Source: Escherichia phage WPEC5
DNA: 64,000 nucleotides
Sequence record: PV654397.1
Direction: 5' to 3' (one strand)
Part shown: one piece after another, positions 1-64,000 of the stretch
Layout of the letters: each line of letters starts with the position of its first letter
How positions within the stretch are numbered: position 1 is the first letter of the stretch
Position numbers and translations under genes: made by a program
The notes under the pieces: generated by a model
Told to the model about the DNA's origin: nothing
The model's input: only the letters and a program-made list of their open reading frames with translations
The model's database searches: none

Positions 1-405
1 AAAATCATAAGTAGTTAAGTCATAACCACCAGCGTTACGTGCAGACGTTAAAAGGTAAGTGTTGGTAAATGCGAGTGAAAAAGGGTCTACTGAGTTACCA
101 CTACCAGAACTTAGATAACCGTTACCATAACGATAAATCTGTTTGACAATTTCAACTTCAGTAGGAAGCATGTATACAGATTGTGAATCATAGAATTTCA
201 TGTTCAAGAATGCTTCTTCTTTTGAAGCAGAACTCCATGCTCGGTAGTTTGATACCGCATTATCAATTGCAATTTCCAATTGACCGTCAGTAATTTCAAC
301 TTCAACTGCACCAGCACCTAACATTTGAGTGATAACATCTTTCAGTTTTTCACGATGATCAAAGTTTGGAGCATCTGGGTTTCCACCCATATAATCGTAA
401 GACAT
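1..405 (-). CDS. hypothetical protein, partial (N-terminal 135 codons; continues past window start)
   Basis: ATG at 405..403, open frame to position 1 checked by hand translation; no motif recognised. Confidence 0.5.
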   Translation of the reverse strand, partial: MSYDYMGGNPDAPNFDHREKLKDVITQMLGAGAVEVEITDGQLEIAIDNAVSNYRAWSSASKEEAFLNMKFYDSQSVYMLPTEVEIVKQIYRYGNGYLSSGSGNSVDPFSLAFTNTYLLTSARNAGGYDLTTYDF

Positions 406-455
406 AAAAAAGCACCTCATTAATGTTTATATACATTATTTAGAGGTGCTAATAG

Positions 456-674
456 TTATTTGGAATTATACAAGCAATACAAGTATACCATAGGAGCAAA
501 ATGTTCGGTATCAACTAAGTATATTAACTGGGTGTCATATATACCGTACAAATCTCGAAATTTATCTCTGTACAGCAACAATGACTTATTGTTGTGTGGG
601 TCAACCCAGTACTTTAAGTCATTGTAGTGCAACGTGTTATTACGGTAACCTGATAATATTTGTTTTTTAGCCAA
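456..674 (-). CDS. hypothetical protein (72 aa)
   Basis: Track ORF, co-oriented and tightly packed; no motif. Confidence 0.4.
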   Translation of the reverse strand: MAKKQILSGYRNNTLHYNDLKYWVDPHNNKSLLLYRDKFRDLYGIYDTQLIYLVDTEHFAPMVYLYCLYNSK

Positions 675-1044
675 CTTTTTTACAATTACTTAGTAAATGC
701 ATGATGGCATCAGCGGTAAATGGTCCCAGTACTAAAACTTCTTCTCCATTACCGAAGATACTCAATGGTACAGATTGTTGTCCTGCTAGATATTCGATTT
801 GTTCTAATTCGAAAATGTCATCAGCAGCATAAACAACCTGTTCCATTTCATTATCTTTAATCCATGACTGCCAATGTTCTTTAAACTGCTTCGCTTCGTA
901 TTCCAGTACATAGTTAGGTGATTCTGGATTGTACTGATGTAGCATTGTCATACCAGCCATAACCAGTTCTTTTGGTGATGGAGTGGAATCTTTCAGTACT
1001 ACGATAGCTTGGATAGTTTTAACTTTAACGTTTTGAGCAGCCAT
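667..1044 (-). CDS. hypothetical protein (125 aa)
   Basis: Track ORF, co-oriented; no motif. Confidence 0.5.
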   Translation of the reverse strand: MAAQNVKVKTIQAIVVLKDSTPSPKELVMAGMTMLHQYNPESPNYVLEYEAKQFKEHWQSWIKDNEMEQVVYAADDIFELEQIEYLAGQQSVPLSIFGNGEEVLVLGPFTADAIMHLLSNCKKVG

Positions 1045-1056
1045 TAGATACCTCTA

Positions 1057-1374
1057 TTATAGAATGATTTTGTTATCAGGAACAATCAGTGCTGGTTTTT
1101 CTTCGATAGCCTTGATTGCTTCAACATAAGCTTCAACTAGTGCAGGGTTTGCATCGCTGATGCTAATGATGTTGGATTTATAAAAAATAACGCCTTTTTC
1201 AGAACTAATGAATTCTAGGTAATCACGTAGAATGATTTCACCTTGTTCGTCAGTACCTAGCTGTGCTGGGTAGTTAACTACTACTGCTTCTGGTGCATCA
1301 TTTTGTAGAATTGCTAGTACTGGGCCAACGCTGTTGATGTTTAGTAGTTTAACGGTCATAGTCATTTTTGTCAA
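1057..1374 (-). CDS. hypothetical protein (105 aa)
   Basis: Track ORF, co-oriented; no motif. Confidence 0.5.
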   Translation of the reverse strand: MTKMTMTVKLLNINSVGPVLAILQNDAPEAVVVNYPAQLGTDEQGEIILRDYLEFISSEKGVIFYKSNIISISDANPALVEAYVEAIKAIEEKPALIVPDNKIIL

Positions 1375-1384
1375 GTCCTTTTGT

Positions 1385-1861
1385 TTATTTTAGAAAGTAT
1401 AAGTGTTTTTCTGCATTAACCAGTCTGTGGTCAATGATTTCTTTGATAACGTTCCAGTTACCACCGCCTAAATCGGCTCCAATTTTCGGGAAGTGTACAT
1501 GAACAGTGCGTTCAACGTTACATAAGTAATTGAGTTGTTTGAAAACATCATCGATTGCATCATAACTCACATACTTAGAACCGTCATTACCATAGTACTT
1601 TTGGGTAATGCAGTTTGCGATAAGCAAATCATCACTTATAGAAGAATATGAAATTTGTCCTGTTCTTAGAAATCCCATTTCCTTTTCATATGCTTTATAA
1701 TCATCATATGCCATCGGATAACGATTTCTTAGTTCTTTTGCAAAACCCGAACCCATCTTACCCTGTGCATTACAACCATGAGCGATTATATGCAACGCGG
1801 TTTGATCATCAGTAACAGTGTTGAATAATTCAAACAAATTACCTAGGTGTTCATGTATCAT
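1385..1861 (-). CDS. macro-like domain protein (putative ADP-ribose binding/processing)
   Basis: Gly-rich loops NAQGKMGSGFA and IGADLGGGNW resemble macro-domain ADP-ribose loops; divergent. Confidence 0.5.
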   Translation of the reverse strand: MIHEHLGNLFELFNTVTDDQTALHIIAHGCNAQGKMGSGFAKELRNRYPMAYDDYKAYEKEMGFLRTGQISYSSISDDLLIANCITQKYYGNDGSKYVSYDAIDDVFKQLNYLCNVERTVHVHFPKIGADLGGGNWNVIKEIIDHRLVNAEKHLYFLK

Positions 1862-62199: not shown

Positions 62200-62443
62200 A
62201 AAAGATGACTAATCCTTTGTAGACATTTACACCAATCTTGATTTGGCATATTTTATTCGATTTACAAGCCTCAGTCAATAACATTTTGTGCTCTTTACTG
62301 AAAGTGTGGAAGAGTGGTTTTACATGCCACATCTCCACACCATCTAGTACTGGAAAATGTTCACTGAATTTGATCATTGATTCTTGCAAAAAATAACCTG
62401 TTAGATTCGAATCATCAGACATGTAAGTTCGCCAGGAAGTCAA
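62135..62443 (-). CDS. hypothetical protein (102 aa)
   Basis: Track ORF. Confidence 0.5.
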   Translation of the reverse strand: MTSWRTYMSDDSNLTGYFLQESMIKFSEHFPVLDGVEMWHVKPLFHTFSKEHKMLLTEACKSNKICQIKIGVNVYKGLVIFFDNNSNYFYIVKEHYVDKYKY

Positions 62444-62708
62444 TTACTTCGTCATGTGTTAACTTATCACTACGCTCTAGAACATTGATGATGAATGGTG
62501 TTTGACTATATAATTCAGCCAGAAACGCAACTTCATCAGATGTATAAGAATATCCCATAGGAACAACTTGTGCAGTCCAGTTTCCTAAAGTTTTGTTTGC
62601 AATGATTGCAACCACCGTATTACCTTTGAATTCAACATGGATTGAACGGAAACCCGAATCCTCATTCTGATCCCAAAGTACTGGGTTAGTTTTAAACAGT
62701 ACTGACAT
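62415..62708 (-). CDS. hypothetical protein (97 aa)
   Basis: Track ORF. Confidence 0.5.
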   Translation of the reverse strand: MSVLFKTNPVLWDQNEDSGFRSIHVEFKGNTVVAIIANKTLGNWTAQVVPMGYSYTSDEVAFLAELYSQTPFIINVLERSDKLTHDEVIDFLANLHV

Positions 62709-62710
62709 AG

Positions 62711-63244
62711 TTATTTCCTCATGTATTTTATTACATCTTCAAATAGTTTAGTTTTCAGTGCATCATCATTACCAGGTAGAAAAGTACTGAAGCTATTAAA
62801 ATCTTCATTCTTGGCAAACTCACGCATCTGTGTGGAACTGTAGCGACTTATATTTCGGTCAATTCCAGCTTGAACTGCCTTGATTGAACAAAAATTATAT
62901 AACTTCCCATTGTACGTGTCAAGTGTTTTTTGGAATGGTTCAAGTCTATCTGAACCACATATGAAAAGAACATCTAAGTACTTTCCATCCAGTTCTCTCA
63001 TTATATCAAACAGATTATCTTCTGTATAGATATTTTCTTGTACAGATGGGTAAAATCCTTCTGTATAGTACATTTTCAGTTCAGGAGGTAATGGGTTTTT
63101 GATGGCATCAGTACTGGTACTAAGGAATATTTTCAAATCAGCATTGTACTGTTCTTGTAGTGCTTGTGCTTTTTCAAACACTAAGCCATGTCCGTGATGT
63201 ATTGGGTTACATCTCATGAATGATAGTATACATGTTTCTTTCAT
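62711..63244 (-). CDS. cytidylyltransferase-fold nucleotidyltransferase (NMN/NaMN adenylyltransferase-like)
   Basis: HxGH motif (NPIHHGH) and downstream ISRYSSTQMR (ISSTxxR-like). Confidence 0.5.
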   Translation of the reverse strand: MKETCILSFMRCNPIHHGHGLVFEKAQALQEQYNADLKIFLSTSTDAIKNPLPPELKMYYTEGFYPSVQENIYTEDNLFDIMRELDGKYLDVLFICGSDRLEPFQKTLDTYNGKLYNFCSIKAVQAGIDRNISRYSSTQMREFAKNEDFNSFSTFLPGNDDALKTKLFEDVIKYMRK

Positions 63245-63765
63245 ATGTTCTTCATCACCTGACCAATAGATTTAAGATGGTTGATTTTAGCTGGAGTCAA
63301 ATACTTATCCAGTACTATTAAACAACTAGGGAATGGAGCACTGTCAGTCTTTTTATCTGGTTCTTCAGGGATACCGAACTTTAAGCGACCTTTTATAAAA
63401 CAAATACAATCACAAACTTTCGCAGCATAATCCTGAAAGGCTATAGTATCAGTTCTTGATGGTACGAGAATCAGTACTGTAGCACCTTTGTTATATGCAT
63501 CAACTGCCTTAGATAACCACGTTTTCAAATCACTGTACGGTGGGTTGAGCCACACGATATTGTTTCCCCAGTCCTGTTCAAGTGAATTGTCTTCTGGTGT
63601 AAAGAACTTATCACACAATGCAGTTTCTTTGACACACGCTGCATCTAGTGTAAATTCCCAGAGTTCATCCAAATCTTCAAAGAAATCCTTTGGAGTAGTC
63701 CAGTTATCTTTTCCAGTACTGAAATGTACTGATTGTTTTTTCTTCGAAGCATCCTTCTTCGACAT
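63241..63765 (-). CDS. DNA N6-adenine methyltransferase (phage Dam family)
   Basis: TPKDFFEDLDELWEFTLDAAC and catalytic NPPYS motif. Confidence 0.65.
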   Translation of the reverse strand: MSKKDASKKKQSVHFSTGKDNWTTPKDFFEDLDELWEFTLDAACVKETALCDKFFTPEDNSLEQDWGNNIVWLNPPYSDLKTWLSKAVDAYNKGATVLILVPSRTDTIAFQDYAAKVCDCICFIKGRLKFGIPEEPDKKTDSAPFPSCLIVLDKYLTPAKINHLKSIGQVMKNI

Positions 63766-63781
63766 ACATAATTTCCTTTGA

Positions 63782-64000
63782 TTATAGACAGTTAAGTACT
63801 ATGTCATCAAAAGTACTACTGTCAATGTTGTATTCATATAAAAATTTAAAATGTGATCCATAACGCATCATCAGATTAAACTCTTCTTCAGTATTAAATT
63901 TGTAATCATGAAGAGTTTCAAGGGTACATGTTAAACCTAAAAACTCAATAATTTCTGATGTTACATCATTTCCTGAATTGAAGTATTTAACCCAAACACA
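63782..64000 (-). CDS. hypothetical protein, partial (C-terminal 72 codons; start beyond window end)
   Basis: Open frame from 64000 to TAA at 63784..63782, checked by hand translation. Confidence 0.45.
   Translation of the reverse strand, partial: CVWVKYFNSGNDVTSEIIEFLGLTCTLETLHDYKFNTEEEFNLMMRYGSHFKFLYEYNIDSSTFDDIVLNCL

Follow-up and report, generated by a model that had tools for sequence, protein, structure and literature searches.

A hyper-abundant palindrome, AGTACT, as a probable selected DNA-level signal in RaK2-like jumbo phages

Introduction

Short palindromes that greatly exceed their expected abundance are known from cyanobacteria, in which the Highly Iterated Palindrome HIP1 (GCGATCGC) has been described (Xu, Lawrence & Durand 2018, PMC5861425). 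Here we analyzed a 64,000-nt stretch of Escherichia phage WPEC5 (PV654397.1; hereafter the window), in which the palindromic hexamer AGTACT is several-fold over-represented. HIP1 and AGTACT are alike in being hyper-abundant against composition-aware expectation, within and between genes and in all frames, and in having no known reader; both are also conserved between genomes above background, which argues for selection rather than biased repair. They differ in that HIP1 is enriched 15- to 300-fold in cyanobacterial chromosomes with a periodicity of 10–90 kb, whereas AGTACT is a word of 6–8 bp that is enriched about 8-fold in a virus with no large-scale periodicity. AGTACT further differs from HIP1 in that a subset of its copies occupies fixed promoter positions and in that a strand-specific variant forms an island. 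By analogy, HIP1 is the closest known phenomenon, of which AGTACT is an analogue and not a member.

Other described systems resemble AGTACT in part. The uptake signal sequences (USS) of Haemophilus and the DNA uptake sequences (DUS) of Neisseria are, like AGTACT, short words that occur about once per kb or more densely in coding DNA and are rare elsewhere, so that own and foreign DNA can be distinguished. They are non-palindromic and have a known competence receptor, whereas AGTACT is a palindrome of a phage genome for which no reader is known. Chi (GCTGGTGG) and the FtsK-orienting polar sequences (KOPS) are over-represented oligomers read by DNA-processing machines, and the island of the variant AGTACA makes a similar polar half-reading possible; Chi and KOPS are polar, whereas AGTACT is palindromic and lacks a genome-scale skew. 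The SlmA-binding site of E. coli, reportedly GTGAGTACTCAC, has AGTACT as its central hexamer, together with dyad symmetry and a dimeric helix-turn-helix reader. Its flanks (GTG...CAC) are opposite to those in the phage, where G at −1 is depleted to 7–9%; the window contains no SlmA 12-mer and three copies of GAGTACTC, and an SlmA site is thus ruled out by the flanks. AGTACT is also the site of ScaI/Eco255I. Phages are textbook examples of palindrome avoidance and normally avoid such sites, whereas this phage multiplies AGTACT, for which a cognate restriction-modification system was not found.

No report of the motif was found in the literature on these phages, on phage palindromes, on ScaI/RsaI, or on methylomes, of which the coverage was incomplete, so a prior description is possible; papers on RaK2, CBB, phAPEC6, fEgEco12, and Sharanji do not mention it.

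Results

AGTACT is enriched beyond composition and codon usage

The window contains 184 copies of AGTACT (2.88/kb; Table 1), whereas 21.5 are expected from base composition (observed/expected ratio, O/E, 8.6). The excess is larger than the roughly six-fold one estimated in an earlier sequence-only reading of the window; the 20 copies counted there by hand in the first 10 kb become 23 on recount. Each 2-kb bin of the window holds 2–11 copies. Markov models of order 1, 2, and 3 predict 18.6, 36.2, and 64.1 copies, respectively (O/E 2.9 for order 3), and a model of order 4 predicts 152.5 but is uninformative, since the counts of AGTAC and GTACT are themselves its input. Among the 180 hexamers that share this composition, the median count is 22; all counts above 67 other than that of AGTACT belong to shifted overlaps of AGTACT itself, the next three being 87, 73, and 69, and the 23 other palindromes of this composition occur 5–37 times. 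Consistently, each of the 11 most frequent 8-mers of the window overlaps AGTACT.

Codon-aware null models were then compared with the 168 copies observed in coding DNA. About 118 open reading frames (ORFs) were called in the window, every one on the minus strand; these gene calls are crude, and the coding/non-coding split depends on them. When synonymous codons were shuffled 300 times, with every protein and the pooled codon frequencies left unchanged, 36.0 ± 5.4 copies were expected (O/E 4.7, z = 24.5), and the highest count in any shuffle was 52. Permutation of codons within genes gave 24.1 ± 5.1 copies (O/E 7.0, z = 28.4). The copies fall in all three codon phases (80, 30, and 58 observed versus 20.4, 5.5, and 10.1 expected), and non-coding DNA carries 17 copies in 5.8 kb (2.9/kb), which equals the coding density. 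The AGTACT enrichment is a signal at the level of DNA that neither dipeptides nor codon usage explains, in agreement with the sequence-only reading, which had noted sites in different codon phases and in non-coding DNA and had argued against a single dipeptide; the enrichment likewise stands against the codon-aware and third-order Markov nulls and the same-composition controls by which it was to be checked.

The flanks of AGTACT are not random. CAGTACT occurs 89 times in the window, AGTACTG 86 times, and the 8-bp dyad CAGTACTG 38 times, with 0.6 expected from composition; about 47% of the sites have C at −1 and about 47% have G at +6. The extension of AGTACT to 8 bp noticed earlier is therefore real, but it is present in only part of the sites. 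Among 822 sites of a related full genome, symmetrized, C makes up 45% of position −1 (background 18%) and G 9%, positions beyond −1/+6 carry no information, and control palindromes show no flank preference. Among words with one mismatch, those changed at the outer positions are mildly enriched (2.0- to 2.3-fold) and those changed at the inner positions are not, and the exact palindrome reaches 7.6-fold, compared to 1.4- to 2.3-fold for AGTACA, AGTACC, and AGTACG. Such a graded pattern of neighbors and flanks is typical of protein-binding sites.

The enrichment characterizes a clade of jumbo phages

In a sequence search the window was about 98% identical to the jumbo coliphages Turkey3, vB_Ec-M-J, fEgEco12, Ecwhy_1, and EC.P1, and about 82% identical to PBECO4, phAPEC6, and 121Q of the genus Asteriusvirus; by this similarity its source is an Asteriusvirus-like jumbo coliphage. 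The genome of fEgEco12 (374,733 bp, with 21-kb direct terminal repeats, DTRs, at 1–20,993 and 353,741–374,733) served as the whole-genome reference; the counterpart of the window lies at roughly 61–125 kb in reverse orientation, and word counts outside the repeats cover 37.6–353.7 kb (316 kb). Samples of 40–71 kb each were taken from other phages and the host, that of E. coli K-12 being 50 kb. As had been proposed, related phage genomes were compared, and AGTACT is enriched 6.2- to 8.6-fold in five phages of four genera (Table 2). The enrichment characterizes RaK2-like jumbo phages of Enterobacterales (Asteriusvirus, Alcyoneusvirus, Mimasvirus, and Eneladusvirus). The density in the window and in the host sample is 2.88 and 0.06 per kb, respectively, a 48-fold difference that ranks first among all hexamers.

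Other palindromes are avoided in the same lineage. GCGC is absent from the four enriched samples in which it was counted, the window included (29–57 expected per sample, 57 of them in the window), and from the 316 kb of fEgEco12 (0 versus 318), whereas it is at normal levels in T4, PA5oct, and Atu_ph07; its absence and the AGTACT enrichment co-occur phylogenetically in the samples examined. GGTACC (KpnI/Acc65I) and CGTACG are likewise absent (0 versus about 6 each in the window and about 33 each in the 316 kb of fEgEco12), CCGG, CGCG, and GGCC are at about 0.3-fold, and GATC is at about 0.5-fold. The expected contrast with the usual avoidance of palindromes by phages thus holds, and against such strong avoidance the opposite treatment of AGTACT stands out. 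As further word biases among the comparison phages, GATC is missing from the XacN1 sample (150–190 kb; 0 versus 155 expected), and the top hexamers of the PA5oct sample (100–150 kb) are TGCAGA/TCTGCA at about 4.5-fold.

AGTACT is under purifying selection

PBECO4 aligns to 95% of the window at 84.6% identity, and AGTACT is conserved at 121 of the 174 alignable sites (70%), compared to 44% for all hexamers and 37–48% for phase-matched hexamers 6–24 bp away. Identity at third codon positions is 0.845 inside the sites and 0.702 outside, and the third base of ACT codons is kept in 0.91 of cases inside the motif versus 0.64 elsewhere (P = 8e-6). In fEgEco12, 52% of Ser-Thr dipeptides are spelled AGTACT, whereas 15% are expected from codon usage, and about 46% of X-Val-Leu and 40% of [KQE]-Tyr-[FLSYCW] contexts that could carry the motif do so. 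The dipeptides Ser-Thr (1.45-fold) and Val-Leu (1.29-fold) are themselves over-represented, and Thr-Ser and Leu-Val are not.

A more distant comparison was made between fEgEco12 and GAP32 over 21 orthologous genes (62% amino-acid identity). Twenty of 73 sites are orthologous versus 0.15 by chance, and conserved Ser-Thr dipeptides are spelled AGTACT in 72–80% of cases, so that most positions turn over while the density is held, and the available coding opportunities tend to be used. Between genomes of about 99% identity there are four gains and eight losses, with nine substitutions in sites versus about 14 expected, a comparison of low power. Purifying selection maintains AGTACT and is strong enough to skew the choice of codons and even the dipeptide content. 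The earlier suggestion of a functional DNA-level signal is borne out by the codon-aware nulls, the enrichment in all phases and in non-coding DNA, the conservation at synonymous positions, and the maintenance throughout the clade, and we consider it very probable that AGTACT is a selected, DNA-level, clade-specific signal.

Distribution along the genome and at promoters

fEgEco12 contains 1,115 AGTACT sites versus 126 expected, with enrichment in every 10-kb bin, and the motif occurs about once per 350 bp over almost the whole genome of about 350 kb. Outside the DTRs the spacing is near-Poisson (coefficient of variation of gaps 1.16; variance/mean of 1-kb bins 1.07), and the metagene profile is level at both ends of genes, apart from a drop at ribosome-binding sites and an increase immediately after stop codons. 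Together these observations fit a density-type tag, and the flat profile rules out a signal of promoters only or terminators only. A packaging signal, which was among the functions suggested earlier, is unlikely given the near-uniform spread of sites over the whole genome. No large-scale periodicity was found in fEgEco12, and the proposed spacing periodicity is reduced to an excess of site pairs 20–24 bp apart (31 versus 13.5 expected genome-wide, about 2.3-fold).

The DTRs are twice as dense in AGTACT (6.5/kb), and their non-coding DNA reaches 12.6/kb. Two forms of sigma70-like early promoter with the motif at a fixed position were recognized. In one, AGTAC-TTGCAA-N16-18-TATAAT, AGTAC abuts the −35 element (23 cases, 19 in the terminal repeat); in the other, TTGnnn..AGTACT-N1-2-TATAAT, the motif lies 1–2 nt upstream of the −10 element (25 cases, 18 in the repeat). 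The two are often combined in one promoter with their sites 20–23 bp apart, and the second form is also found in RaK2, a phage of a different genus, directly upstream of tRNA genes. About 48 of 977 fEgEco12 sites have a fixed position relative to −35/−10 (37 in the terminal repeat), and the window has a few such sites of its own. Because this subset is small and the metagene profile is flat, a promoter role cannot explain the bulk of the sites. The DTRs of fEgEco12 also hold dozens of near-identical sigma70-like promoter cassettes before tiny ORFs, e.g., AAAAAGTACTTGCAAactatgtttaaaggcGTATAATgtt, a layout that recalls the pre-early regions of T5.

Within the window, the AGTACT pair at the right end (Table 1) lies 35–52 nt upstream of the methyltransferase ORF, and the promoters predicted there, TTGACA-16-CATAGT (63825..63798) and TTGATG-18-TATAAT (63810..63781), are consensus matches only.

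A one-directional AGTACA island and a motif-free array

Two regions of fEgEco12 outside the window depart from the general pattern. The 8.6 kb at 29,016–37,647 contain no AGTACT, although by chance no gap would be expected to exceed about 2.6 kb. In this island AGTACA occurs 46 times on the coding (top) strand and its reverse complement not once, in three phases and in non-coding DNA and with C at −1; AGTAC is found 51 times on the top strand versus once on the other, and GTAC is followed by T in 1 of 88 cases. The counterpart in PBECO4 (sample positions 12,000–20,000) has four AGTACT and 46 AGTACA sites, and AGTACA sites of the island are conserved at 70% versus a 43% background between the two phages. 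AGTACA is elevated over about 25–60 kb of fEgEco12. No Pfam family was detected in ten island proteins, and half-sites outside the island show no genome-scale strand skew in fEgEco12. The conservation and polarity of the island show that half of the palindrome can be selected alone and in one direction, and the functional unit may accordingly be a polar half-site. None of the explanations offered below accounts fully for this one-directional selection of a half palindrome.

An array of overlapping tiny ORFs (about 70 aa), at about 21–27 kb of fEgEco12, directly beside the left terminal repeat on its inner side, and at 4,000–10,000 of the PBECO4 sample, shows no enrichment of GTAC or AGTACT in either phage; it may be young or fast-evolving DNA. 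That such an island and array exist within the same genome argues against a genome-wide mutational cause of the enrichment.

Other features of the window

Homology to fEgEco12/PBECO4 annotation assigns to the gene block of the window NrdD/NrdG, DNA ligase, PhoH-like, Sir2-like, and NUDIX proteins, polynucleotide kinase, RNA ligase, tRNA nucleotidyltransferase, and peptidyl-tRNA hydrolase. At about 32,300–33,300 only short ORFs are found where fEgEco12 has an intact 324-aa gene with a WGR domain (g228), and by eye no frame gives a translation matching the g228 protein; gene replacement or disruption may have occurred. TAAATA (7 copies) and TATTTA (20) are several-fold depleted versus about 68 expected, and TATAAATA occurs once, which may reflect avoidance of a T4-type late-promoter core in an early/middle gene block.

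Chi was also over-represented, an excess to which codon effects may contribute. CCACCAGC occurs five times in the window (at 26, 41917, 44252, 48821, and 56444; 0.25 expected), with GCTGGTGG at 12767, and fEgEco12 has 24 and 12 copies by orientation where about one is expected, 10 of them in the same orientation within the 21-kb terminal repeat. By Chi polarity, the orientation in the terminal repeat would presumably face RecBCD entering from the right genome end.

Table 1 Coordinates of AGTACT sites and associated features in the window
Feature	Position	Strand	Basis or remark
AGTACT field, 184 sites (2.9/kb), the window's share of about 1,000 genome-wide	1..64000		exact word count
AGTACT starts, 1–15 kb	608, 728, 995, 1316, 1594, 2840, 3391, 3562, 3598, 3819, 3949, 4003, 4208, 4806, 4829, 5361, 6678, 7813, 8092, 8188, 8226, 8968, 9094, 10220, 10667, 11227, 11434, 11921, 12253, 12608, 12628, 12985, 13246, 13541, 13718, 13783, 14401, 14617		
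AGTACT starts, 15–30 kb	15083, 15426, 15922, 16063, 16308, 17277, 17944, 18128, 18316, 18393, 18655, 18966, 19315, 19984, 20705, 20918, 20945, 21987, 22091, 22178, 22409, 22673, 22961, 22997, 23072, 23451, 23632, 24787, 24979, 25015, 25251, 25317, 25695, 26214, 26422, 26895, 27112, 27989, 28121, 28734, 29036, 29540, 29573, 29895		
AGTACT starts, 30–50 kb	30778, 30878, 32000, 32040, 32057, 32325, 32477, 33132, 33236, 33549, 34457, 34548, 34675, 35946, 36009, 36486, 36671, 36789, 37071, 37937, 37995, 38282, 39297, 39435, 40850, 41066, 41256, 41570, 42003, 42487, 43270, 43409, 44555, 44867, 45705, 45739, 45762, 45852, 46387, 46702, 46871, 47095, 47260, 47319, 47823, 48448, 48710, 48833, 48877, 49246, 49522, 49894		
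AGTACT starts, 50–64 kb	50644, 51016, 51283, 51524, 51536, 51872, 52279, 52834, 52896, 53107, 53203, 53334, 53460, 53977, 55208, 55389, 55651, 55903, 56125, 56200, 56947, 57337, 57509, 57533, 57761, 58378, 58526, 58546, 59314, 59486, 59725, 60071, 60305, 60597, 60791, 61090, 61276, 61425, 61599, 62346, 62677, 62698, 62783, 62977, 63110, 63311, 63473, 63715, 63795, 63812		
38 dyads CAGTACTG	4805..63721		starts 4805, 5360, 6677, 8967, 11226, 12252, 12984, 15082, 15425, 23450, 27111, 28120, 29035, 30877, 32056, 32476, 33548, 34456, 34547, 36008, 36485, 37070, 38281, 39296, 43269, 45851, 46386, 47094, 47822, 51871, 55650, 57336, 59313, 61089, 62697, 63109, 63472, 63714
AGTACT pair 17 bp apart, short intergenic gap upstream of ORF 31407..32033	32040..32062	-	
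AGTACT pair 21 bp apart, about two helical turns	62677..62703		
Similar AGTACT pairs	4806/4829, 12608/12628, 45739/45762, 57509/57533, 58526/58546		
Dam-family (PF05869) N6-adenine DNA methyltransferase, 174 aa, candidate modifier	63241..63765	-	Pfam E = 2.3e-32
Two AGTACT 17 bp apart within two overlapping predicted sigma70-like promoters	63795..63817	-	context ttgacagtAGTACTtttgatgacatAGTACTtaactgtctataatc

Table 2 AGTACT enrichment and GCGC in the window, other phages, and the host
Sequence	AGTACT O/E	GCGC
Window (WPEC5)	8.6	0
PBECO4	8.1	not counted
RaK2 (Klebsiella)	7.5	0
GAP32 (Cronobacter)	6.2	0
Serratia phage BF	6.6	0
T4	0.30	present
PA5oct	0.18	present
Atu_ph07	0.15	present
XacN1	0	present
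E. coli K-12	0.26	6.8/kb

Discussion

The explanation we favor, although we hold it tentatively and give it somewhat less than an even chance, is that a DNA-binding factor specific to the clade recognizes AGTACT, or (C)AGTACT(G), tagging phage DNA and also working at early promoters. The factor would be a sequence-specific DNA-binding protein, most simply a symmetric dimer. It might mark or coat phage DNA as "self" while host and phage DNA need different treatment, the phage DNA being without GCGC and rich in AGTACT and the host DNA rich in GCGC and poor in AGTACT, and it might bind as at an operator to the early promoters of the terminal repeat, where paired sites flank the −35 element. In favor of this reading, the site is a dyad whose flanks are graded, some sites take fixed positions in promoters, pairs of sites are separated by about two turns of the helix, the overall distribution is of the density type, and phage and host differ extremely. 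Several points weigh against it. About 1,000 sites per genome far exceed the use of an ordinary transcription factor, and the strand-specific AGTACA island would not be predicted by a simple symmetric-dimer model. Furthermore, a domain search among the annotated regulators checked found no reader protein: g185, g307, and g390, annotated as "transcriptional regulator," have no match to a sequence-specific DNA-binding domain, and neither a Dps-like DUF5856 protein, a DksA-like protein, nor a zinc-finger protein has such a domain. The homologs of g185 are in addition confined to Asteriusvirus, by which it is rejected as the reader.

Alternatively, AGTACT could be the target of a phage DNA modification, by the PF05869 enzyme or another modifier, and serve as an epigenetic mark, e.g., timing early promoters or distinguishing virion from newly replicated DNA. 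A 6-bp palindrome has the classic format of a type II methylase site, the phage encodes a C5-cytosine methylase (Pfam) elsewhere, and the Dam-family methyltransferase reported in the window by the sequence-only reading is a genuine match to PF05869. Early promoters also carry AGTACT at the −35 region and in the spacer, and at Dam-regulated promoters (IS10, P1 cre, and Mu mom) methylation at such positions can switch activity. We nevertheless regard modification as unlikely, although it should be taken seriously. The targets of methylases are usually not enriched, an 8-fold enrichment would not follow from protection alone, the partial preference for C/G flanks is unusual for a methylase site and resembles that of a protein-binding site, and the full avoidance of GGTACC would be needless if GTAC were adenine-methylated. 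The link once suggested between the Dam-family enzyme and AGTACT is unsupported: the enzyme is 100% identical in EC.P1, and its family, of which the members characterized so far methylate GATC, occurs in more than 2,000 phages at about 30% identity, HK97 and Stx phages among them, so that its presence says nothing specific about AGTACT. No solved relatives were found for this enzyme or for the HNH endonuclease of the window. The C5 enzyme is an unlikely modifier as well, since bisulfite data from RaK2 point to CpG methylation (PMC3622015). Ten enzymes cut fEgEco12 DNA as predicted, ScaI and RsaI being outside this set (PMC13070987). Less likely still is that the functional unit is the polar half-word (C)AGTAC, recognized on a single strand by an enzyme that moves along DNA or is strand-specific, such as the phage primase-helicase, a helicase-nuclease, the phage type II topoisomerase (whose cuts are staggered by 4 bp, A|GTAC|T), or RNA polymerase; a palindrome would then supply both strands with the signal economically. 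The AGTACA island, with its polarity, its retained C at −1, and its equal number of sites in each phage, speaks for this idea, and a near-uniform spacing of about one site per 350 bp would suit a processive enzyme. Against it stand the lack of half-site skew elsewhere and the strong preference for the exact palindrome over its one-mismatch neighbors, and the separate enrichment of Chi means that a RecBCD-type role is already filled; we know of no enzyme that reads AGTAC.

The remaining alternatives deny any function. A neutral mutational or biased-repair process, e.g., very-short-patch repair, could regenerate AGTACT, and it would agree with the density maintained between fEgEco12 and GAP32 while 73% of positions turn over and with the gains and losses seen between nearly identical genomes. 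However, such a process should deplete the one-mismatch neighbors, and these are undepleted (8 of 9 pairs have O/E 1.0–2.3, and the deamination product AGTATT/AATACT 1.12); it is further contradicted by the conservation at synonymous positions, by the shifted dipeptide content, and by the adjacent regions that share the replication and repair machinery but lack the motif, i.e., the tiny-ORF array and the AGTACA island. Biased repair is rejected on the neighbor-word analysis and these motif-free regions, and we consider neutrality very unlikely. An artifact of codon usage or of frequent peptides has some basis in that AGT, ACT, GTA, and TAC are fairly common codons (relative use 0.33–0.46), but the z-values of 24–28 under the codon-aware nulls, the equal enrichment of all phases and non-coding DNA, and the same-composition hexamers rule it out with near certainty.

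The recognition of AGTACT by a clade-specific binding factor might be part of a two-word self/host code in jumbo phages with unmodified DNA, in which GCGC is purged and (C)AGTACT(G) is raised to about 50 times its density in the host. Host DNA, which bears GCGC, could be degraded by a nuclease of the phage, and the clade-specific reader could coat, protect, or activate phage DNA and switch early promoters; the AGTACA island would then show the reader working through polar half-sites. The logic is analogous to that of T4 base modification and of the phage nucleus, except that the two-word tag would be written in plain sequence. This extension is speculative and, in our view, doubtful.

Whereas this lineage excludes several palindromes altogether, it accepts costs in codons and amino acids for more than 1,000 copies of AGTACT. 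Such costs imply a strong benefit that has been undescribed so far. In practical terms, digestion of these genomes with ScaI or RsaI should yield very small fragments if the sites are unmodified, and the AGTACT-rich, GCGC-free signature may help to recognize the clade and to flag recently imported DNA. The reader of AGTACT, if found, could account for the way in which large phages that have neither modified DNA nor a phage nucleus tell their own genome from that of the host, and for the control of the early promoters in their terminal repeats.

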